This document shows, piece after piece, positions 2,414 to 56,240 of a stretch of 64,000 nucleotides of DNA. Under the pieces are notes generated by a model. The model saw nothing but the letters and a program-made list of their open reading frames with translations, was not told where the DNA came from and ran no database searches. The position numbers and the translations under genes were made by a program. Origin of the DNA: a virus. Taxonomy: Duplodnaviria > Caudoviricetes. Numbering within the stretch: the first letter of the stretch is position 1; the number at the start of each line of letters is the position of its first letter. The DNA lies in the IMG/VR virus record IMGVR_UViG_3300032227_001172, positions 1 through 64,000 of that record, one strand, 5' to 3'.

Positions 2414-3020
2414 TACAGTTGTGTGTCTCAACATTCTTAGACATAAATAGCTCTTTAAGGTATTGCTGTTCTGCCGACGGATTATGAAATTGAGAACCTA
2501 TATTACCATTAAATCCAACAAAAGTAAATGAAGATAACGGATATCTTTCTTTCAGATGAATGTATAACCATAGTCCACTGCTTAAAGTTTTTTGTTTAGC
2601 CCAAGGCTTTACATTAAAGTTGAGTTTATGTACTAGATGAAAATGTTCTTGATTAAAAGATAGTCTATATGGATATAGTCTAGTATTATCAATATTTAGT
2701 TCTTTAATTCGATCTAAAAAAACCTGATATGGTTCGTCTTGATCGGGCAAAGCACCGAATTGTTCAAAATCATACTTCTGAAGTAGTGTCAGATCTCTAA
2801 AGATTAATGTTCTTTTTCGTATATTAGATGTATCTGATAATACTCTAAAAAAAATCCATTTCTTTGGAAACTCTATAACACTACTGAAACTCAAAGGTTC
2901 TGCTGTATTCAGTAAAATGTATACCGCATTGTTATAGTCTGGATGATGAAGTAAAAAATTATCTAAATCGCCATACTTATTTTTGAGCCGATTAGCAAAT
3001 ATAAAAAATCTTTGAGCCAT
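2403..3020 (-). CDS. GT29/Maf-like (sialyltransferase-fold) hypothetical protein
   Basis: LSSGLW...FTFVGF...FHNPSAEQQYL resembles the GT29-like S/VS motifs; start moved to ATG 3020. Confidence 0.45.
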   Translation of the reverse strand: MAQRFFIFANRLKNKYGDLDNFLLHHPDYNNAVYILLNTAEPLSFSSVIEFPKKWIFFRVLSDTSNIRKRTLIFRDLTLLQKYDFEQFGALPDQDEPYQVFLDRIKELNIDNTRLYPYRLSFNQEHFHLVHKLNFNVKPWAKQKTLSSGLWLYIHLKERYPLSSFTFVGFNGNIGSQFHNPSAEQQYLKELFMSKNVETHNCIME

Positions 3021-3021
3021 T

Positions 3022-3345
3022 TCATTCACGAATAATATCATCTAATTTTAATTCAGTATAATATATTTCTAGTAGCTGGCAAGGTTCTACGGCTAAGAAT
3101 TTGTGCCATTTTTTAGGTTCTATGGTTATAGAGTCACCGCTATGCAAAAAGATTTCTCTATAATCTTGATTATGTTCCCAGATTTTTACTATTAGAAAAC
3201 CAGATTCTAAAAAAAATAAATTATATTTGAATTCATGAAAGTGTTTGGAACTCATGCCACCTTTCATGATTTCAGCTCTGTAAATTTCTACATTTTTATC
3301 ATTAAAAATTAATGTAGTCTTACCCCAGGCTTTGTCTGTAGTCAT
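3022..3345 (-). CDS. cupin-domain protein (mannose-6-phosphate isomerase type II C-terminal-like)
   Basis: KAWG, SSKHFHEFKYNLF, GDSITIEPKKWHKF, LLEI; start at ATG 3345 after GGAG. Confidence 0.8.
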   Translation of the reverse strand: MTTDKAWGKTTLIFNDKNVEIYRAEIMKGGMSSKHFHEFKYNLFFLESGFLIVKIWEHNQDYREIFLHSGDSITIEPKKWHKFLAVEPCQLLEIYYTELKLDDIIRE

Positions 3346-4105: not shown

Positions 4106-5107
4106 ATGATAGGATTAGACGTAGGTACGAGTTTTATAGTAGCGGCCTCTTATGACAAAGATAATATTGTATTTAAAGATTTTAGAGACGCTTTTTATAT
4201 AATAAAACCGAATACTCCAATAGCAGCAAAAATGGTTGAGAAAGGATTACAAGGAAAGGTATTTATTAAAGATTCAGATGGATCTTTTGTAATACTAGGA
4301 AAAGATGCTATAGAAAAAGCTGTTGAAAGAAATGAAACAGCTAGAAGGCCAATGTATCGTGGGGTTGTTTCTGTAAAAGAAAAAGAGGCAAAAAGAATAT
4401 TAGCTTATATTTTAAAAGAAGTAGTTGGACAAGCTAAAAAAAATAATACTAAATTAGTATTCTGTGTTCCAGCACAACCTGTTGATCAAGAAGATGATGA
4501 TTTTGATGTTGGTTATCATGAAGATGTAGTAAAAACAATTTTATCAGAAGTAGGATATGATGCTAGATCTATTAATGAAGCTGAAGCACTATGCTATGCA
4601 GAATTAGAAGAAACTGATTATACAGGGATTGGGATTAGTTGTGGTGCGGGAATGATGAATGTTTGTGTTATGCTAAATGGTGAGCCAACTGTTGTTTTTA
4701 GTACAACAAAGTCTGGGGATTGGGTAGATCGTATGAGTGCGGTTGCGACAGGAGAACCCGATAGCGTCGTACAGGTTGAGAAGGAGGGCGGTGGATTTAA
4801 AATAGGTGAGCCAAACGACAATCCCGTTTTAAGTGCCGTAGCGTCTTATTACGAGCGTCTGATAGAATATACAGCAAAACAATTGTCTCATGCTCTTTCA
4901 GATCACAAAGCATTACCTAAATTTAAAAATCCTATTAGGATTGTAGTAGCTGGTGGTACGTCACAAGCTAACGGCTATATAGATAAATTACATGAAAAAT
5001 TATTACAATCTAATTTTCCATTAATTATAGAACAAGTCAAGCACGCTTCTGATCCCCTACACTCAGTCGCTAAAGGCTGTTTAATAGCAGCAAATGTTAT
5101 TTCTTAA
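4106..5107 (+). CDS. actin-superfamily ATPase, volactin-like
   Basis: Phosphate-1 IGLDVGT, RRPM, connect-1 INEAEA, phosphate-2 GISCGAGMMNV, GDWVD, adenosine VVAGGTS, connect-2 SVAKG. Confidence 0.9.
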   Translation: MIGLDVGTSFIVAASYDKDNIVFKDFRDAFYIIKPNTPIAAKMVEKGLQGKVFIKDSDGSFVILGKDAIEKAVERNETARRPMYRGVVSVKEKEAKRILAYILKEVVGQAKKNNTKLVFCVPAQPVDQEDDDFDVGYHEDVVKTILSEVGYDARSINEAEALCYAELEETDYTGIGISCGAGMMNVCVMLNGEPTVVFSTTKSGDWVDRMSAVATGEPDSVVQVEKEGGGFKIGEPNDNPVLSAVASYYERLIEYTAKQLSHALSDHKALPKFKNPIRIVVAGGTSQANGYIDKLHEKLLQSNFPLIIEQVKHASDPLHSVAKGCLIAANVIS

Positions 5108-5945: not shown

Positions 5946-6843
5946 GCTATTACCGCATATTCGTCAAGACTTATTTGGTTTAAGTACGCAATCTATGCAG
6001 TTTTTCCCTTGGCCTATTAAAAAATTTGATGTCGAAAAGACATGGTATCTTTCTGAAGGAGAAGATATAACTGTTGGTGTTATAGACACTGGATGTGACC
6101 TTAATCACGAAGACTTAAAAGATAATTTACTTTTAGGTAGAAATTTTGTAGAAAATAATAATGATCCACAGGACCGCAATGGGCATGGTACTCATGTTGC
6201 CGGAACAATTGCTGCTATAAATAATCAATATGGTATGGTTGGAGTAGCTCCAAAAACAAAAATTTTACCAGTAAAAGTTCTAGGAGATGATGGTGGAGGA
6301 TCCAATGCTTCTGTAGCAAATGGAATACTATGGGCAGTTGATAATGGCGCAAAAATTCTTACAATGTCTTTAGGTTCTCCGCATAAATCTAGAAACATAG
6401 AAAGAGCATTGCAATATGCTGTTGATCATAAAGTAACTATATTTTGTGCTGCAGGGAATAGCGGAAATAATGTTGATATAATGTATCCAGCTAAATATCC
6501 TGAAACTATAAGTATTGGAGCAATAGGACAAAATTTATCAGTATCAGATTTTAGTTGTTGCGGAGATAGTCTTGATTTTGTAGCTCCCGGAGAAGATATT
6601 ATCAGCGCAGTTCCCGGCAATAAGTATGCTAAAATGACGGGAACAAGTATGGCAACTCCATATGCTGTTGGATGCGCCTCGTTATTACTATCCCTAAGAA
6701 AAAAACAATTTAATAGCAAGCACCTAGAAGATAAAAATGGATATATCGATGAATTTAAAAAAGTATCAATCCCAATAACTGGTCGATATGCAAACGATAG
6801 GAATTACCAAGGAAATGGTATTATTCTACCTATTACTTCTTAA
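5926..6843 (+). CDS. subtilisin-like (S8) serine protease
   Basis: VIDTG, HGTHVAG, AAGNSG, GTSMATP. Confidence 0.95.
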   Translation: MLRRECKLLPHIRQDLFGLSTQSMQFFPWPIKKFDVEKTWYLSEGEDITVGVIDTGCDLNHEDLKDNLLLGRNFVENNNDPQDRNGHGTHVAGTIAAINNQYGMVGVAPKTKILPVKVLGDDGGGSNASVANGILWAVDNGAKILTMSLGSPHKSRNIERALQYAVDHKVTIFCAAGNSGNNVDIMYPAKYPETISIGAIGQNLSVSDFSCCGDSLDFVAPGEDIISAVPGNKYAKMTGTSMATPYAVGCASLLLSLRKKQFNSKHLEDKNGYIDEFKKVSIPITGRYANDRNYQGNGIILPITS

Positions 6844-13299: not shown

Positions 13300-13887
13300 A
13301 TGGATAATCAAAAATTTGAGGATCTTAGTACATACATATTGCTAGCTAAAAAGGTGATATCTAAATTTGCCCCATCGTTTTATAATGGGCTTCATAAGGA
13401 GCTTTTATCAAATGAAGATGCAGTATCTGATATAGCATCGGCTTTAATGATAGCAGATTGGAAATGGGATAAAGATCGTACAGGATTTAATGGTCAATCT
13501 AAAACTAGATATTCTTATAGAAACCAATGTGGTTTATGGGCTATTAAAACCTATGTGTCTAATAAATATAAGAAAAAAAATCATAAGCTATCCATAGATA
13601 ATTTAAGTAATGACGATCTAAGAACTCACGCCTCTCATATAGTTGACAACTCTAATTGTAATCCTTATGAGATTCTAGCAGAAAAAGAAGAAAAGAATTT
13701 TATTCAGCAAAATATTAACAATGTGTTGGAATCAGGCATCCTATCTGATAAACAAAAGAACCAAATTAAGAAATATTATTTTGAAAATAAAACATTGCTA
13801 GAAATTGGAAAAGAATATGGAGTTACAAGAGAAGCTGTTAGACAAAATATTCAAAAGGGACTAAAACGTATCAAGAATTATGTTTAA
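13300..13887 (+). CDS. phage sigma70-family sigma factor
   Basis: Region-2-like ALMIADWKWD...YSY; region 4 HTH TLLEIGKEYGVTREAVRQ. Confidence 0.85.
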   Translation: MDNQKFEDLSTYILLAKKVISKFAPSFYNGLHKELLSNEDAVSDIASALMIADWKWDKDRTGFNGQSKTRYSYRNQCGLWAIKTYVSNKYKKKNHKLSIDNLSNDDLRTHASHIVDNSNCNPYEILAEKEEKNFIQQNINNVLESGILSDKQKNQIKKYYFENKTLLEIGKEYGVTREAVRQNIQKGLKRIKNYV

Positions 13888-48637: not shown

Positions 48638-49674
48638 TTACTTACTTAAGAAGTAGTTCATATGGAACACACTCTATGTGTCCGATGCAATATTTTATAG
48701 AATATAATTTAGGTATGAAGTCTCCGTCCAATAAAAAAGCAGATAAAGGCACTATATGCCATAAGGTTTTTGAAATTTTAGCTTTCATTAAGTTAAATAA
48801 GCAAAATAACAGCAAATATTTTGAAGACGATATTGTAGGAAATATTGATATTACAAATTATAGTTTATCTGAACTGATAGAACAAGTATATAACTATTAT
48901 ACATCTCGTTTTACTCATCATGAGTGGACACCTAAAGACTTTAAAGACTGCACTAATTGGATTCATAAGGCTTTAGATTATGGAAACGGAATGTTCGATC
49001 CACGCAATAGAGATATTATATGTCCAGAACAACATTTTGATATACCCATTACTAAAGACTGGGCAAAATATGACTATCCTACCAAAGAAGGTCGATTAAA
49101 AGGAACACTGGGTATAAAAGGGACTATTGATCTTATTACAAAAGTTAACGACGAGACCTACGAAATCATAGACTGGAAAACAGGTAGGAGGCTTGATTGG
49201 GCTACTGGTGAAGAAAAAACATTAAATAAGTTACATTCTGATCCACAATTAATGTTATATTATTATGCTATTCATCAATTATATCCTCATATAAAATATA
49301 TTATTGTTTCTATTAATTTTATTAATGATGGAGGCATGTTCTCGGTGTGTTTCAATCAGTCACATCTTTATCAGGTTGAAATGATGCTAAAACAAAAATT
49401 TGAGACCATAAAAAATACTAATAATCCACCATTAAATAAAAGCTGGAAATGTAGTAAATTATGTCATTTTGGTAAAAATAGTTTCGCCAATACAAATCAT
49501 GCACCACTTATAGAATATAGAAAAAATCAAACTATTCCTATAGGTAACACAATGACTATTTGTGAACAAATCAAACACGACATTGGTATCAAGGGTATGA
49601 ACAATGTGATTGACGAGTATCAGACACCAGGATATAATATAGGACAGTACAAAGCCCCTGGAAGTGCAGAATAA
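48631..49674 (+). CDS. PD-(D/E)XK Cas4/AddB-like exonuclease, probable ATC/ATA start
   Basis: SSSYGTHSMCP, GTICH, GTIDL, IIDWKTG, QLMLY, CxxLC..C; frame is open upstream of ATG 48676. Confidence 0.85.
   Translation: MIITYLRSSSYGTHSMCPMQYFIEYNLGMKSPSNKKADKGTICHKVFEILAFIKLNKQNNSKYFEDDIVGNIDITNYSLSELIEQVYNYYTSRFTHHEWTPKDFKDCTNWIHKALDYGNGMFDPRNRDIICPEQHFDIPITKDWAKYDYPTKEGRLKGTLGIKGTIDLITKVNDETYEIIDWKTGRRLDWATGEEKTLNKLHSDPQLMLYYYAIHQLYPHIKYIIVSINFINDGGMFSVCFNQSHLYQVEMMLKQKFETIKNTNNPPLNKSWKCSKLCHFGKNSFANTNHAPLIEYRKNQTIPIGNTMTICEQIKHDIGIKGMNNVIDEYQTPGYNIGQYKAPGSAE
49610..49638 (+). promoter_or_regulatory. sigma70-like promoter TTGACG-N17-TATAAT inside the 3' end of the nuclease gene
   Basis: Near-consensus; ~70 nt upstream of dnaE-N. 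Confidence 0.6.
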
Positions 49675-49709
49675 ATCAAATTACTTATGATTGGTGAGTC
49701 ATTCATTTT

Positions 49710-51584
49710 ATGAAGAAATATATCCCTTTGCACGTACATTCTATGTACAGCTTATTGGACGGTTTGTCTAAACCAGATCAAATTGCTGATAGATGTATAG
49801 AAATAGACGCTAAATCATGTGCTTTAACAGATCATGGTAATATCGCCGGTGCTGTTAAATTTTATACTCAGATGAAAAAAAGAGGTATAAAACCAATACT
49901 GGGTTGTGAACTATACATTAGCGACAATGATGCTTCTATACAAGATAAAAATAATAAAAAATTGAGCCATTTTATAGTATTGGCTAAAAACTATCATGGA
50001 TGGCAAACCTTAATTAAAATTGTATCCGAATCAAATAAACCTGAATTTTATTATCATAAACCAAGACTAGATCTTAATCGTCTAGGAGAATTACTGGATG
50101 GTAATTTGATAGGTTTTTGTGGACATCTAGGATCAACCCTCGCAGATAAGTTGGTTATCGGAGATACTATATCTAATGACTGGAGAAACATTGGTCTAGA
50201 ATATATTGGTAAATTTAAAGATATATTTGGTAAAGAAAATTTTTTCTTAGAATCTCAATTAATGGATAAAGATAATTTATCCGTACAATCTCCTTTGACT
50301 GATTGTATTAGAGAATTAGCCAAATTAACTAATACGAAAGTTATTTGTACTCCAGACGCACATTATTGCAGACGTTCTGATGCTGTTGATCAAAGAGTAT
50401 TGCTATGCAATAATCTAAAGACTACATTGCCAGAGATCAATAGAAAATTAAATAATAATGAAGAGATAGGACTAAGTGCATTTTTCCATTCAGAAAATTT
50501 TCATATTTTATCTCAAGAAGAAATTCATACTCTCCATACCCAAGAAGAAATCAATAATACAAATATTGTTGATGACATGTGTGAAGAATATGATATTTTA
50601 AGTAAGCCAAACCTACCTCCATTTGATTGTCCGGATGGCTATGATGACGCTGAATATCTGAGACAGTTATGTAGAAACGGATGGAAAACCAAAATAGCCA
50701 ACACCGTTCCTGCTGAAGACCAACAAGCTTATATAGATAGAATCAAATATGAACTAGACGTATTACAGGGGGCTAACTTGTCTAGTTATTTTTTGATCGT
50801 TCAAGATATAGTTAATTATGTTAGAGGTAATAATTGGTTGCCTGGACCCGGTAGAGGTTCTGCTGCTGGTTGTTTAGTTTCATATTTAATAGGTATTACT
50901 AATATAGATCCCATTAAATATAATCTTATGTTTGATAGGTTCTATAATGCTGGCCGTAATACTAAAGAACACATATCAATGCCAGATATAGATGTGGATG
51001 TTCCGATTAATAAACGAGAAGATATTATTCAGTATATTAAAAATAGATATGGTATTGACAAAGTATCTCAAATGATTACATTCAATACTATTAAAGGCAG
51101 AGGCGCTTTAAAAGATGTATTGAGAGTATATGGTAATATTTCTTTCGAAGAAATGAATAGAATTACCAAAAATATACCAGATGAAGCTAAAATTGCAGAC
51201 GAATTGCAAGTCATGAAAGACGAAACAGGAGAGGCATCCATTATTAGATGGGCCTTAGAAAATAATGCTGATAAGCTCAAAGAATGGTGTTTCATAGACC
51301 AACAAGGAGAATTGCAAGGACCGCTTGCCAAAAGGTTTGAACAGGCTATAAGATTAGAAGGCGTGAAGTCAAACCAATCTAAACACGCAGCGGGTATTGC
51401 TATTAGTTCTCAAACATTAAGCGATATTTGTCCGATGGTATATGATTCCAAAAACGATCAGATGATTGCTGGTATGGAAATGCAAGATCTAGAAGCAATT
51501 GGCATTATTAAGTTTGATATTCTCGGAGTAGCGATGTTAGACAAAATTATGACTATTCAAGATTTATTAAAAGAAGGAGACTAA
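49710..51584 (+). CDS. dnaE: DNA polymerase III alpha, N-terminal part (PHP, palm, thumb)
   Basis: LHVHSMYSLLDG, TDHG, GCE, DAHY, GRGSAAG, PDIDVD, HAAG, KFDILG, then stop. Confidence 0.95.
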   Translation: MKKYIPLHVHSMYSLLDGLSKPDQIADRCIEIDAKSCALTDHGNIAGAVKFYTQMKKRGIKPILGCELYISDNDASIQDKNNKKLSHFIVLAKNYHGWQTLIKIVSESNKPEFYYHKPRLDLNRLGELLDGNLIGFCGHLGSTLADKLVIGDTISNDWRNIGLEYIGKFKDIFGKENFFLESQLMDKDNLSVQSPLTDCIRELAKLTNTKVICTPDAHYCRRSDAVDQRVLLCNNLKTTLPEINRKLNNNEEIGLSAFFHSENFHILSQEEIHTLHTQEEINNTNIVDDMCEEYDILSKPNLPPFDCPDGYDDAEYLRQLCRNGWKTKIANTVPAEDQQAYIDRIKYELDVLQGANLSSYFLIVQDIVNYVRGNNWLPGPGRGSAAGCLVSYLIGITNIDPIKYNLMFDRFYNAGRNTKEHISMPDIDVDVPINKREDIIQYIKNRYGIDKVSQMITFNTIKGRGALKDVLRVYGNISFEEMNRITKNIPDEAKIADELQVMKDETGEASIIRWALENNADKLKEWCFIDQQGELQGPLAKRFEQAIRLEGVKSNQSKHAAGIAISSQTLSDICPMVYDSKNDQMIAGMEMQDLEAIGIIKFDILGVAMLDKIMTIQDLLKEGD

Positions 51585-51585
51585 A

Positions 51586-51771
51586 ATGTCCACAACACAG
51601 AAATTTGTAGATATTGCTATTGGCACTAAATTTAAGTTTGACAATAAAGAATATGTAAAGATTAAAGATCAAAGAGTAACATGTTGTAAAGTTTTTAATG
51701 CTACATTACCCGATGACCCCAATCAAAAGTTTTTTATTGTTCCAATTAGCGAGGTAGAAATTATCAACTAA
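51586..51771 (+). CDS. 61-aa hypothetical protein inside the split dnaE locus
   Basis: GGAG RBS; TAATG coupling to the exonuclease. Confidence 0.75.
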   Translation: MSTTQKFVDIAIGTKFKFDNKEYVKIKDQRVTCCKVFNATLPDDPNQKFFIVPISEVEIIN

Positions 51772-52457
51772 TGATTAATTATAACAAAATTTGCGTATTT
51801 GATTTTGAAACAGACGGTACTGATACTAGTTCATGTAGCCCAGTGCAGTTAGCCGCTGTCATTATTGATCCTCTTAAATTAGAAGTGATTGCCAATTCCG
51901 AATTTAACATCTATTTTAAACCAGAAGTGTTAGAGAAGGATCCAAAATATGAGTATACGACAGATGTTGTAGATTTTCATGCAAAAGTTCAGGGCTGTTC
52001 AAAAGCAGATATCATGGATAGATGGCTACAATATCCATCACAAGAGCATTCTTGGAAAATGTTTGTAGATTATTTAGATAAATATCATACCCGAACATCA
52101 AAGAAAAGTCAGTTTTCTGCACCAATAGCAGCTGGATATAATATATATAGATTTGATCTTCCTATAGTTGATAGACTAAGCAAAAAATATGGGAATACTA
52201 ATAAAGAAAATAGATCAGACATATTTTATCCTAGAGACGTAATAGATATTATTAATTTAGTATTTTATTGGTTTGAACATAATAGTGAATTGAAAAGCTA
52301 TACATTGGATTCTTTAAGAGATTACCTCGGTATTTCTAAAGAAGGGGCACACGATGCTGTCAAGGATATTAGAGATAGTGCAGAAGTCTTGATCAGATTT
52401 ATGAAACTGCATAGGCGTTTATCTAACAGTATAAAGTTTAAGGATTCGTTTAAATGA
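51771..52457 (+). CDS. DEDDh 3'-5' exonuclease (DnaQ-like)
   Basis: FDFET, GYNIYRFD, HDAVKD. Confidence 0.92.
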   Translation: MINYNKICVFDFETDGTDTSSCSPVQLAAVIIDPLKLEVIANSEFNIYFKPEVLEKDPKYEYTTDVVDFHAKVQGCSKADIMDRWLQYPSQEHSWKMFVDYLDKYHTRTSKKSQFSAPIAAGYNIYRFDLPIVDRLSKKYGNTNKENRSDIFYPRDVIDIINLVFYWFEHNSELKSYTLDSLRDYLGISKEGAHDAVKDIRDSAEVLIRFMKLHRRLSNSIKFKDSFK

Positions 52458-54067
52458 AACATTTTGCTTACTCTTGTGGTTGTAGTTTTGATGTTATAGA
52501 TGATAGCAATCTTAAGATAAATTTTGATCCTGTTCATCACCCAATAAACTTTGATTGCAAAAAAACATGGGATTTGATATCTGATGGGAATACTAAGGGG
52601 TGTTTCCAATTAGAATCTAGGCTTGGTAAATCAATGGCGAAAAAGCTCAAGCCAGAGAATATAGAACAATTATCCGCTTTAATTTCTATATTACGTCCGG
52701 GTTGTTTAGAGGCGATTAGAGATGGTAAAAGCGTAAGTAACCATTATATAGATAAAAAAAATGGACAAGAGTCGGTCGATTACTATCATCCGTCATTAAA
52801 AAATGTACTACATGCCACATTCGGCGAAATGATTTATCAAGAACAGGCCATGGAAATAGCCAAACATATTGCTGGATTCGATTTGCAAGAAGCAGACAAC
52901 CTAAGAAAAGCTATTGGCAAAAAGAAACCAGAAGAAATGGCAAAACTGAAATTAAAATTTATGCTTGGAACTAAAGCACTCAAAATTGTAAATGATAATG
53001 AGGCTGAAGAAATTTTCGGATGGATTGAAAAAAGCCAAAGATATAGCTTTAATAAGAGTCATGCCGTAAGTTATGCCGTCAACGCATATTTATCTGCTTA
53101 TACTAAAGCACATTTTCCTCGTATTTTTTTTGCATCTTATTTGAGATTTGCTAAAGATAAAATTGATCCTAAAGCTGAGATCAAAGCTCTGGTACAAAAT
53201 GCCACAGAAATGGACATCTTAGTCTGTGTGCCAGATATTAGAAATTTAAATGAATTATTCATAATGAAGAATAAAAAAATATATTTTGGTTTAACAGATA
53301 TTAAGGGTTTTGGTCAGTCTGTATATAAGAAACTGATTGCTTTGGTTAAAGATCAGTCAATTAATTTTGATAATATAAGCTGGTCAGAGTTTGTTGTTAA
53401 GATATTAGTTAATCTAAACTCCATTGCAGCTAAATCTTTAATAGAAAGTGGTGCTTTGGATTATTTCAAAATGACCAGAACATCTATGCTGTTAGAGTTA
53501 AGTTTGGTTTCAGAATTAACAAAAAAAGAAGTAGAGTTTGTAAATCATAATTTAGTGGGATGCAGATCGATTTATGAGTGCTTATATAAATTATGTCATA
53601 ATGCTAAATTAACATCTCGTAGAAAAACTATTATTGAAGGATTATTAAATACATTATCTAATCCACCATATTCATTGGAAGATAGTCCTGAATGGATTTC
53701 TGATACCGAAGAAGAAGCATTGGGTTGTAGTATTACTTGTTCTAAAGTAGACATGTATGATATTGGAATGACAAATTGTAATTGTAAAGATTTTAAAAAT
53801 ACTCTATTAAATGATATCATTTTATGTGGAGAAATTTCTACTATTAGTGTTACTAAAACTAAGACAGGAAAAAACCCCGGATCAGAAATGGCCTTTGTAT
53901 CATTATCAGATAGTTATGGTCTAATAGATAGTGTAATATTTTTTCCAGAAGCATATAAAGAATGTCGTAATATTTTATTCGATAATAATGTAATTATTGT
54001 TAAAGGTAAAAAAAGTAAAAATGGCGATTCATTAATTGTCGAAAAGGCATTTATTCCGAAAACTTGA
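52454..54067 (+). CDS. dnaE: DNA polymerase III alpha, C-terminal part (fingers, HhH, OB)
   Basis: GCFQLES, LRPG, IYQEQ, ADNLRKAIGKKK, YSFNKSHA, FGLTDIKG, LIESGALD, MAFVSLSD. Confidence 0.95.
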   Translation: MKHFAYSCGCSFDVIDDSNLKINFDPVHHPINFDCKKTWDLISDGNTKGCFQLESRLGKSMAKKLKPENIEQLSALISILRPGCLEAIRDGKSVSNHYIDKKNGQESVDYYHPSLKNVLHATFGEMIYQEQAMEIAKHIAGFDLQEADNLRKAIGKKKPEEMAKLKLKFMLGTKALKIVNDNEAEEIFGWIEKSQRYSFNKSHAVSYAVNAYLSAYTKAHFPRIFFASYLRFAKDKIDPKAEIKALVQNATEMDILVCVPDIRNLNELFIMKNKKIYFGLTDIKGFGQSVYKKLIALVKDQSINFDNISWSEFVVKILVNLNSIAAKSLIESGALDYFKMTRTSMLLELSLVSELTKKEVEFVNHNLVGCRSIYECLYKLCHNAKLTSRRKTIIEGLLNTLSNPPYSLEDSPEWISDTEEEALGCSITCSKVDMYDIGMTNCNCKDFKNTLLNDIILCGEISTISVTKTKTGKNPGSEMAFVSLSDSYGLIDSVIFFPEAYKECRNILFDNNVIIVKGKKSKNGDSLIVEKAFIPKT

Positions 54068-54092
54068 CATCGTTGCGTTGGCGATGTATAAT
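54064..54092 (+). promoter_or_regulatory. consensus sigma70 promoter TTGACA-N17-TATAAT
   Basis: Perfect consensus upstream of ssb. Confidence 0.85.
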
Positions 54093-54132
54093 ATGGTGTA
54101 GTTTGGTCAATTTTTCAATTTAGGAGAATTCG

Positions 54133-54501
54133 ATGAATATTAATCTTCTTCGTGGTAATTTAGCTCGTGATCCAGAAGTGCGAACTGTTAGTACTGGTAA
54201 TGGTAAACAAACATCTGTAGTTAATTTTACTATTGCTGTGTCTAGGGAATATGTAAAGGCTAGTGGTGAGAAGGATAAGATTACCACATTTGTGCCTTGC
54301 GAAGCGTGGGATACTGGCGCCGAAATTATAGGTGAGTCATTTAAGAAGGGCGATCTAGTAATGGTAGAAGGATCGTTACGCAATGATTCATGGGAAAAGG
54401 ATGGAGTTAAGCATAATTCTCTAAAAGTTAGAGTAAATAATTTCTCCAAGATTACAAAGCTTTCACGACAAAGCAAGGATAAAGAAGAAGTCGCGTTCTA
54501 A
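54133..54501 (+). CDS. ssb: single-stranded DNA-binding protein
   Basis: GNLARDPE, FTIAV, W, KKGDLVMVEGSL; acidic tail EEVAF. Confidence 0.95.
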   Translation: MNINLLRGNLARDPEVRTVSTGNGKQTSVVNFTIAVSREYVKASGEKDKITTFVPCEAWDTGAEIIGESFKKGDLVMVEGSLRNDSWEKDGVKHNSLKVRVNNFSKITKLSRQSKDKEEVAF

Positions 54502-54526
54502 TTGTCAGAATATCACTAAGTGGATT

Positions 54527-54555
54527 GGGCGTATAAATTTCTATACGCCCTTTCT
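54527..54555 (+). terminator. hairpin / probable intrinsic terminator after ssb
   Basis: Perfect 9-bp stem GGGCGTATA / TATACGCCC followed by TTTCT. Confidence 0.75.
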
Positions 54556-54578
54556 CCTTAATAAGGACCAATATCAGT

Positions 54579-56240
54579 ATGTCTAATAAAAAACTCAGAG
54601 TGTTGATGGTTTCCGAAGCTAGTTTTTTGAGTTCGGGATTCGGTACTTACGCCAAAGAAATCCTCTCAAGATTGCATAATACTGGAAAGTATGAGATTGC
54701 AGAATTAGCCTGTTATGGTAAAGTTAACGATCCTAAAGACGTAGGTATACATTGGAGATATTACGCTAATGCCGTAAATGCCAATGACCCAAGACATGAA
54801 CAGTATAGTCCTTTAGAGAATCAATTTGGCAAGTGGAGATTTGAGAGAACACTATTAGATTTTCGTCCAGACATAGTGATCGATGTTAGAGACTATTGGA
54901 TGAATTCTTATCAACAGTTTTCTCCCCTAAGACCATTCTTTCACTGGATACTGATGCCAACAGTAGACTCTGCTCCACAACAAGAAGAATGGATAGATAC
55001 ATTTTTACATGCTGATGCGGTTTTTACATATTCTGATTTTGGTCGAGACACCCTGGCTAATCAAAGTTTTAATAAGATTAATTATATCGATACCACATCT
55101 CCAGGTGTAAGTTTAGATGTATTTCAACCATTACCGAATCGTTCGGAAATTAAAAAGGCTCTGGGCTTAGAAGATAAGTTTATTATAGGATCAGTTATGC
55201 GTAATCAAAAACGTAAACTGATTCCGGAACTTTTTACAGCGTTCAAAAAACTGTTAAAAGATCTACAAGAATCCAATAATCCAGCTGGTGAAAACATATA
55301 TTTATATTTACATACCAGCTATCCAGATGCCGGATGGGATATTCCTCAATTATTAAAGGAATATGAAGTTGGCAATCGTGTCCTATTCACATATTCATGC
55401 AAAAATTGTTCATTCTTTAGACCCTGTCTATACAATCATCCTTTGACATTTTGTCCAAAGTGTGGCACTAAGTCATTTTCTATGCCAAACGTTAGTGCTG
55501 GTATTACTCAACAAGATCTTAATATTTTAATGAATACTTTTGATCTTTATGTTCAGTATGCTATATGCGAAGGTTTTGGCATGCCACAAGTTGAAGCAGC
55601 ATCAGCTGGGGTACCAATAGCTTCTGTAGACTATAGCGCAATGAACGACGTGGTTTATAAACTTAAAGGCTATCCTATAAAAGTTAATCAATATTTCAAA
55701 GAACTAGAAACTAAAGCTATCAGAGTTTATCCTGACAATGAAGATCTTGTTAGAATTATTAAAGACTATATTAGTATGCCTAATATTTTACGAGAACAAA
55801 AAAGACACGAAACCAGAAAATTAACAGAACAACATTATAACTGGGATAATATTGCTAAAAAATGGGAACATTATTTAGATAATATAAAATTAACTGGTCT
55901 ACAGGGTCAATGGTCAAGCCATCTCAAGCATATTCAACCGGTAACTAATATGAATAAGGATGGGAATCCATATGATACAATTATAGATTGGGTTTCTCAA
56001 AACATGACAGGCCATCAGCTATTAACTTCTAAGTTATTACTTAATATGATTAGAGATCTTGATTATGGTTTTACTATTAATGGTATGAGTACTCAAAACT
56101 ATAGTATTGATAATGTTAAGAAGAGCTTGGAGGTAATGATCAATAATCATAATACCGCCATGGTTGCAAAAGACAATCCACAATTGTTACCAACAGAAGA
56201 TTATATAGACTATGCTAATATGAAGGATGCTACTAAATGA
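54579..56240 (+). CDS. GT-B (GT4-like) glycosyltransferase with an inserted Zn ribbon
   Basis: SGFG, RNQKRK, CKNC...CPKCG insert, EGFGMPQVEA. Confidence 0.88.
   Translation: MSNKKLRVLMVSEASFLSSGFGTYAKEILSRLHNTGKYEIAELACYGKVNDPKDVGIHWRYYANAVNANDPRHEQYSPLENQFGKWRFERTLLDFRPDIVIDVRDYWMNSYQQFSPLRPFFHWILMPTVDSAPQQEEWIDTFLHADAVFTYSDFGRDTLANQSFNKINYIDTTSPGVSLDVFQPLPNRSEIKKALGLEDKFIIGSVMRNQKRKLIPELFTAFKKLLKDLQESNNPAGENIYLYLHTSYPDAGWDIPQLLKEYEVGNRVLFTYSCKNCSFFRPCLYNHPLTFCPKCGTKSFSMPNVSAGITQQDLNILMNTFDLYVQYAICEGFGMPQVEAASAGVPIASVDYSAMNDVVYKLKGYPIKVNQYFKELETKAIRVYPDNEDLVRIIKDYISMPNILREQKRHETRKLTEQHYNWDNIAKKWEHYLDNIKLTGLQGQWSSHLKHIQPVTNMNKDGNPYDTIIDWVSQNMTGHQLLTSKLLLNMIRDLDYGFTINGMSTQNYSIDNVKKSLEVMINNHNTAMVAKDNPQLLPTEDYIDYANMKDATK

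Follow-up and report, generated by a model that had tools for sequence, protein, structure and literature searches.

A phage DnaE split between palm and fingers into two genes without inteins, with a proofreading exonuclease and a microprotein encoded in the break

Cyanobacterial split DnaE and the fractured genes described by Dassa et al. (2009) are encoded in two parts that carry split inteins and are ligated by trans-splicing (PMC2677866). In the fractured genes, found in environmental phage-like DNA and including dnaE loci, a homing endonuclease gene lies between the halves (PMC2677866). A survey of about 2,000 bacterial genomes regarded intein-split cyanobacterial DnaE as the only natural split and other fragments as likely errors (PMC3919608). 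In the Aeromonas phages 25 and 44RR, the family-B polymerase gp43 is split, without an intein, into the adjacent gp43A and gp43B (Petrov et al. 2010; PMC2988022); gp43A and gp43B of phage 25 copurify and show activity, as does another split enzyme, NrdA of phage Aeh1, which is active too (PMC2988022). Group 2.2 jumbo phages have a family-B polymerase and, in addition, a two-protein "minimal Pol III alpha" whose genes lie far apart (Iyer et al. 2021; PMC7824862). Here, we describe a locus in the IMG/VR virus record IMGVR_UViG_3300032227_001172 (Duplodnaviria; Caudoviricetes), where a full-length DnaE, the alpha subunit of DNA polymerase III (Pol III), is cut between palm and fingers into two genes, dnaE-N and dnaE-C, with a DEDDh exonuclease and a 61-residue microprotein encoded in the gap. 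This intein-less split, with a proofreader and a clade-specific microprotein between the halves, is genuine and widespread and had not been described before: in the literature covered by our search, we found no published account of the arrangement, and the literature found on split dnaE consisted of intein papers.

We analyzed the first 64 kb (64,000 nucleotides; the window) of this record of an uncultured phage, a single contig of 230,691 bp with a GC content of 0.34, whose ends overlap by 123 bp; the record is assigned direct terminal repeats and a completeness of 100%. Like the split-intein loci, the window has dnaE in two genes, and like the fractured genes it has other coding sequence between the halves; it differs in lacking an intein, in the products of the intervening genes (a proofreader and a microprotein), and in the position of the break. 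The original prediction, made from the letters of the window, had stated that the cyanobacterial trans-splicing arrangement does not fit here, and the absence of an intein and the position of the break agree with it. With gp43A/gp43B the window shares the division of a replicative phage polymerase into two genes without an intein; gp43, however, belongs to the unrelated family B, and what interrupts it is either a homing endonuclease gene or a spacer that is not translated, rather than a functional partner gene. By analogy, gp43A/43B of phage 25 would be the best functional model. As in the group 2.2 minimal Pol III alpha, the catalytic module is encoded as two proteins in a jumbo phage without inteins, but the group 2.2 version is a minimal core without PHP or other domains, whereas the window encodes a full-length DnaE with one cut, in adjacent genes, as the only polymerase detected. 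The pairing of a C-family polymerase with a DEDDh proofreader is common to the E. coli Pol III core (alpha-epsilon-theta) and PolC; these differ in that alpha is one chain and in that the exonuclease domain of PolC lies inside the PHP domain of the same chain. The microprotein resembles theta in size only, since theta is helical and the microprotein is a predicted all-beta barrel.

The locus consists of the following genes, with one segment of dnaE-C listed separately.

49710..51584, plus strand: dnaE-N, 624 aa, encoding PHP, palm, and thumb of Pol III alpha with the catalytic residues D426, D428, and D603 (identified by open reading frame [ORF], Pfam, PHROG, and alignment)
51586..51771, plus strand: gene for the 61-aa microprotein, a predicted SH3-like beta-barrel with an invariant Cys33-Cys34
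51771..52457, plus strand: gene for a DEDDh (DnaQ/RNase T-like) 3'-5' exonuclease, 228 aa, single copy in the genome
52454..54067, plus strand: dnaE-C, 537 aa, encoding fingers, HhH (beta-binding region), and OB fold
52454..52543, plus strand: N-terminal leader of dnaE-C, about 30 aa, with no counterpart in contiguous DnaE

The space between the two halves measures 869 nt and is coding throughout. One nucleotide separates dnaE-N from the microprotein gene (TAA-A-ATG), the microprotein and exonuclease genes overlap at TAATG, the exonuclease gene and dnaE-C overlap at ATGA, and each dnaE half has its own Shine-Dalgarno sequence and ATG. A rereading of the DNA thus returned the ORFs, the translations, the fully coding interval, and the tight coupling that had been predicted. 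The N part had been said to stop 16 residues after KFDILG; it does stop shortly after this motif, and the count is 18.

Pfam searches identified PHP (PF02811, E value = 2.3e-37) and DNA_pol3_alpha (PF07733, 1e-72) in dnaE-N, and DNA_pol3_finger (PF17657, 7e-44) and HHH_6 (PF14579, 2.8e-9) in dnaE-C; an OB match in dnaE-C fell just under the cutoff (25.5 versus 27 bits), and a beta-barrel was modeled at residues 454 to 533. On phrog_405, a profile of full-length phage DnaE, dnaE-N covers positions 41 to 616 and dnaE-C covers positions 622 to 1069, so that almost nothing of DnaE is missing. We scored residue conservation of both halves and of the leader in 28 relatives, of the exonuclease in 57 distinct sequences, and of the microprotein in 42 homologues. 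The catalytic residues D426 and D428 (PDIDVD) and D603 (KFD), all in dnaE-N, were invariant, as were the expected PHP metal-ligand positions (D17, H42, E67, H87, H139, D216, and H218) and the fingers motifs of dnaE-C; mean column identity was 78% for dnaE-N and 71% for dnaE-C. The palm region of dnaE-N aligned to the alpha subunits of Taq, E. coli, and M. tuberculosis. Relative to Taq alpha, dnaE-N ends at about position 636 and dnaE-C picks up at 648; relative to E. coli alpha, the corresponding positions are about 565 and 588. Going by the domain limits published for E. coli alpha (Lamers et al. 2006), we place the break where the fingers begin, in the loop directly behind the palm helix that comes after the third catalytic Asp. 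The dnaE-N end, ...LLKEGD, aligned within a helix of contiguous polymerases. These alignments support the predicted break at the palm/fingers border, with the C part resuming just before GxFQLES and all three catalytic Asp residues in the N part. In place of the single chain of a DnaE-type Pol III alpha, we found two ORFs, in the window and in 80 relatives.

The exonuclease matched RNase_T (PF00929, 3e-11; 44.5 bits versus a cutoff of 24) and phrog_192, "DNA polymerase exonuclease subunit" (2.6e-20). Its DEDDh residues, D11 and E13 (ExoI, D-x-E), D129 (ExoII), and H194 and D199 (ExoIII, H-x4-D), were at least 97% conserved. Because PHP is uninterrupted in dnaE-N and the exonuclease is a separate ORF, the layout is not of the PolC type, in accordance with the prediction that an exonuclease inside PHP does not fit here.

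A scan of IMG/VR found at least 177 relatives of dnaE-N, of which 80 were kept (68 to 85% identity; their contigs, up to 224 kb long, came from many samples). Among GenBank phages, no megablast match was found, and the best tblastn matches had about 34% identity. In all 80 kept relatives, dnaE-N was 605 to 631 aa long and stopped at the identical place; wherever the contig reached, the small ORF, the exonuclease, and dnaE-C followed, with overlaps or gaps of a few nucleotides, and none of the 80 had a contiguous dnaE. The same order and tight coupling were thus present in every relative contig that reached far enough, which is far beyond chance. Recurrence of the split point and gene order in related phages had been set beforehand as a check, and it was present in the 80 kept contigs.

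The contents of the interval varied among relatives. In contigs L050 and L069, DUF1501, DUF1559, and ThyX genes and a small ORF lie between the exonuclease and dnaE-C, and the dnaE halves are about 3.5 to 4.1 kb apart; the interval spans 2.2 to 4.1 kb across such relatives. In the divergent contig L087, dnaE-N is followed by the small protein, two ORFs, UDG, the exonuclease, and dnaE-C; in the likewise divergent L085, it is followed by two small-protein paralogues, three ORFs, the exonuclease, a 51-aa ORF, and dnaE-C. More distant relatives have up to seven genes between the halves, and the interval acts like any intergenic region that accepts entire genes. The cargo regions of L050 and L069 are located at L050:8740-11370 and L069:8725-11970, and their DUF1559 protein has an N-terminal methylation motif. 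We take DUF1501 and DUF1559 to be families typical of Planctomycetes, and cargo of this type possibly hints at the host of these two phages. In L085, the tandem Cys-Cys microprotein paralogues are located at positions 2689-3044, and the Cys-Gly-Cys leader is the separate 51-aa ORF (4723-4878), which overlaps the dnaE-C start by 14 nt; it could reflect a frameshift, a sequencing error, or a further split.

Some relatives have an additional, short interruption inside dnaE-N itself. In L022/L023 (around 5975-6000), L067, L076, L078, and L064, a stop-containing gap follows the PHP codons for H-V-H-S; gap lengths of 8, 8, 10, and 11 nt, none a multiple of three, were observed, with TAG, TAA, or TGA inside, and the frame resumes at H-Y-S-L-L-D-G. 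The gap has one position in all of them but differs in sequence between independent assemblies, which makes a programmed bypass or frameshift likely. In the window, dnaE-N reads through this site without interruption.

We also looked for elements that could rejoin the halves. Neither half of the window's dnaE contained a Hint/intein domain by Pfam. No Cys-led extension follows ...LLKEGD, and a Cys- or Ser-led N-intein is thus absent from the dnaE-N end; at the dnaE-C start, the leader of about 30 aa has no His-Asn plus Cys/Ser/Thr junction and no intein match. These searches and the reading of both junctions confirmed that intein hallmarks are missing from them, as had been predicted. No homing endonuclease is encoded between the window halves, where the intervening genes are those of the DEDDh exonuclease and the 61-aa protein. 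A search of positions 49000 to 55000 against Rfam (E value ≤ 1) returned no family except a chance snoRNA match inside dnaE-N.

Relatives from the same clade served as a positive control. In L025 (8726-11092) and L036 (8732-11131), an intein inserted in frame within the fingers, at RPG|C, lengthens dnaE-C to 788 to 799 aa (PF14890, 1.1e-8 and 5.5e-12, respectively); L025 dnaE-C also has a weak HNH match. In L069 (11967-13845), dnaE-C is additionally fractured at YSFNK|C, with a Cys-led N-intein (CLDVS..., Hint 5.8e-6), followed by a DUF559/Vsr-like endonuclease gene and then by a C-intein ORF from position 13735. This contig therefore has a true fractured-gene arrangement elsewhere in dnaE-C, on top of the palm/fingers split; the YSFNK|C site is near the cyanobacterial DnaE intein site. 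Inteins are thus readily recognized in this gene family where they occur, and none occurs at the palm/fingers break. For introns, the Bacillus phages WH1 (vB_BceM_WH1, L089) and Jayan (L090), whose dnaE is annotated in two or three pieces broken at other positions, served as controls. Rfam returned nothing at gathering score for the split dnaE of either phage, and the Jayan gap (L090:4712-4983) folds far better than shuffled sequence (z = -5.3). The gaps in Jayan and WH1, noncoding or strongly structured, are likely, although not proven, to be introns, and the 76-aa ORF annotated in the Jayan gap is probably spurious. Because these gaps look intron-like, we did not count WH1 and Jayan as true dnaE splits.

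The 42 microprotein homologues had a mean column identity of about 39%, with Cys33-Cys34 present in all and F16, N38, and V57 nearly invariant. A profile search of 1.84 billion representative proteins returned 171 microprotein clusters, nearly all stand-alone and 55 to 70 aa long; the three divergent members that we looked up were all encoded just after a dnaE-N gene. In every locus examined, the microprotein gene follows dnaE-N directly or one small ORF later. The window protein had no Pfam or PHROG family match, and Pfam found no family common to the 42 homologues. No paralogue is present in this genome, and two complete genomes of the split clade each have exactly one copy, at dnaE. Homologues were absent from the flanks of the contiguous-dnaE sisters described below and, for one of these sisters, from the whole 122.8-kb record (G001, 81% complete). 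The microprotein thus defines a new stand-alone family, which in the genomes examined occurs nowhere but at this split. AlphaFold2 predicted a confident five-stranded beta-barrel (predicted local distance difference test [pLDDT], 93), whose weak, nonsignificant neighbors in the PDB are SH3/KOW-like (eIF5A and EF-P N-domains and Tudor; E value ≥ 0.05, template modeling score of about 0.55); these neighbors place the fold in a class but assign it no function. In the representative protein set, an unrelated protein of 371 aa, P0125, has about 12 tandem short EKVSCCGMFNAVP-like units that match the Cys-Cys core of the profile (E value = 7e-22).

In the dnaE-C leader, C8-G9-C10, F12, and C35 were invariant, and the segment was modeled as a beta-hairpin (pLDDT of about 80). 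Contigs L043, L053, and L077 keep the split and the microprotein and lack the Cys-Gly-Cys leader, so that the leader, at least, is dispensable. The earlier suggestion that the new N terminus of dnaE-C and the 61-aa protein may form the interface is conjecture. Complex prediction with dnaE-N residues 310 to 624, dnaE-C residues 1 to 300, and Zn, with the microprotein as partner, gave a score of 0.00, which bears neither way on binding. A four-Cys site shared by Cys-Cys and Cys-Gly-Cys was considered and is weakened by the three lineages without the leader. It is possible, although we hold it rather doubtful, that the microprotein, with the leader in most lineages, is a dedicated assembly subunit that staples the halves, perhaps through a shared metal or disulfide site, or tethers the proofreader. 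If true, the split would be an adaptive new subunit architecture of a C-family polymerase and not a tolerated accident. An interface or accessory role for the microprotein and the leader is, at present, a guess.

Pfam models detected no PolA, PolB, beta clamp, or clamp loader in the whole genome, although the same searches worked in control genomes; the split DnaE thus appears to be the genome's only polymerase, presumably working with the host clamp or without any clamp. The surrounding genes form a replication module, with DnaB, a DnaG-like primase, a deoxynucleoside monophosphate (dNMP) kinase, and a Cas4-like nuclease upstream and SSB downstream. The features flanking the four genes and a ribosome-binding site within them are as follows.

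48676..49674, plus strand: Cas4-like PD-(D/E)XK nuclease gene, the upstream synteny anchor common to the contiguous-dnaE sisters
49610..49638, plus strand: promoter-like site upstream of dnaE-N (11/12 consensus matches; a consensus match only, of putative function)
51574..51579, plus strand: Shine-Dalgarno AAGGAG for the 61-aa gene, read from the sequence, inside the last dnaE-N codons (K-E-G-D)
54064..54092, plus strand: promoter-like site at the dnaE-C end, ahead of ssb (12/12; a consensus match only)
54133..54501, plus strand: ssb, the downstream synteny anchor, following dnaE in the split clade and in the contiguous-dnaE sisters

The site at 54064-54092 is a perfect sigma-70-type consensus (TTGACA, 17 nt, TATAAT) that overlaps the dnaE-C stop, and a terminator-like hairpin was observed 3' of ssb at 54527-54550. 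No convincing terminator was found within the four genes. The 54064 site likely marks the end of the four-gene unit, and the four genes would likely form one transcription unit.

The nearest longer homologues are contiguous DnaE proteins of sister jumbo phages, 1,124 to 1,157 aa long (P0005-P0040, e.g., on L081, L082, and L091) and from contigs of up to 177 kb, with 46 to 58% identity to dnaE-N. They share with the window the synteny (Cas4-like nuclease, dnaE, ssb, and glycosyltransferases) and an orthologous exonuclease (E values of 7e-44 and 5e-27); they differ in that DnaE is one polypeptide, the exonuclease lies outside dnaE, and there is no Cys-Gly-Cys leader and no microprotein in the flanks or in G001. 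The sister exonuclease gene is directly upstream of dnaE in L082 and L083 and downstream of it, between two glycosyltransferase genes, in L081. This varying position indicates that the proofreader gene moved within the module, and in the window's clade it lies inside dnaE. Contiguous sisters have an unbroken 50 to 60 residues from KFDILG to GxFQLES, and their linker of about 10 residues is the site of the split-clade stop, the inserted genes, and the leader of about 30 residues. Maximum-likelihood analysis of the dnaE-N region grouped the 14 close split forms that were sampled into one clade (Shimodaira-Hasegawa-like approximate likelihood ratio test [SH-aLRT], 99). Its sister group consisted of ten contiguous forms together with L085 and L087, both split, and the branch uniting these had weak support (SH-aLRT, 87). 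That all split forms are monophyletic was not rejected (approximately unbiased test, P value = 0.315). A single origin of the split is therefore possible, with either the split or the fused form as the ancestral one.

Because the split is genuine, conserved, intein-free, located at the palm/fingers border, and found in the only polymerase detected, the best reading is a noncovalent multichain C-family replicase; judged from sequence, we consider it likely that the phage replicase is a two-chain Pol III alpha held together without a covalent bond. One chain would comprise PHP, palm, and thumb (72-kDa class) and the other fingers, HhH, and OB fold (61-kDa class), the cut falling in a surface loop right behind the helix that comes after the third catalytic Asp. 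The four products would probably be made from one translationally coupled message, and the halves, the DEDDh proofreader as the third subunit, and the 61-aa beta-barrel protein would probably assemble into a complex like the Pol III core with no covalent join. A noncovalent multisubunit replicase is also what the original prediction had proposed; the split, its conservation, the absence of inteins, and the status as sole polymerase held, while co-transcription, cotranslation, assembly, and activity are inferred. Several points weigh against our reading: the association of the halves and DNA polymerization by the complex are deduced from sequence alone, co-transcription is deduced from consensus scans and gene overlaps only, and some unrecognized means of rejoining, very improbable as we hold it to be, is compatible with the same data.

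Such rejoining could take place after translation, through a reduced trans-splicing element for which the leader might be a remnant intein piece; the leader is conserved and rich in Cys, contiguous DnaE has no counterpart to it, and the clade does host inteins in dnaE-C. The dnaE-N end, however, lies within helix-aligned sequence, with no Cys-led extension and no Hint match, and only about 25 extra residues are available in total, far too few for a Hint fold. The leader, moreover, lacks a terminal His-Asn followed by Cys, Ser, or Thr and is missing altogether from L043, L053, and L077, so that trans-splicing seems very improbable. Also very improbable is a joining of the coding parts at the level of RNA or the ribosome, by an ORF-bearing intron or a translational bypass. 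Group I introns are frequent in phage polymerase genes, the Jayan interruption has a strongly structured RNA (z = -5.3), and a short bypass probably occurs elsewhere in the dnaE-N of some relatives. The window locus, in contrast, has no Rfam match, its 869 nt are occupied by two conserved and translationally coupled genes, and dnaE-C has a start codon, a Shine-Dalgarno sequence, and a leader that are conserved in the manner of a protein-coding gene. In relatives the interval reaches 2.2 to 4.1 kb with unrelated cargo genes, and splicing or bypass across such variable multigene intervals is not credible.

It is also conceivable, although unlikely, that the halves no longer cooperate, either because one or both now serve separate roles or because the phage relies on host Pol III. 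Some host replisome parts are needed in any case, since no phage clamp or clamp loader is encoded. Yet the halves always co-occur, keep their catalytic and DNA-binding motifs, and lie within a full replication module with DnaB, primase, and SSB; a palm without fingers is not known to function as a C-family polymerase. The genome was assembled from a metagenome, and the split might for that reason be an assembly or sequencing artifact or a pseudogene. Eighty independent contigs from many samples, with divergent sequences, intact frames, and the same arrangement, refute an assembly artifact and leave this explanation a negligible probability.

C-family replicases have been treated as single-chain enzymes, and a large natural clade of phages cuts alpha between palm and fingers. 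The split shows a partner gene, that of the proofreader, moving into the gene of its enzyme. Both dnaE ORFs of these phages should not be annotated as pseudogenes or frameshift errors. The split alpha offers a ready-made test of palm/fingers docking and a two-part polymerase scaffold for engineering.

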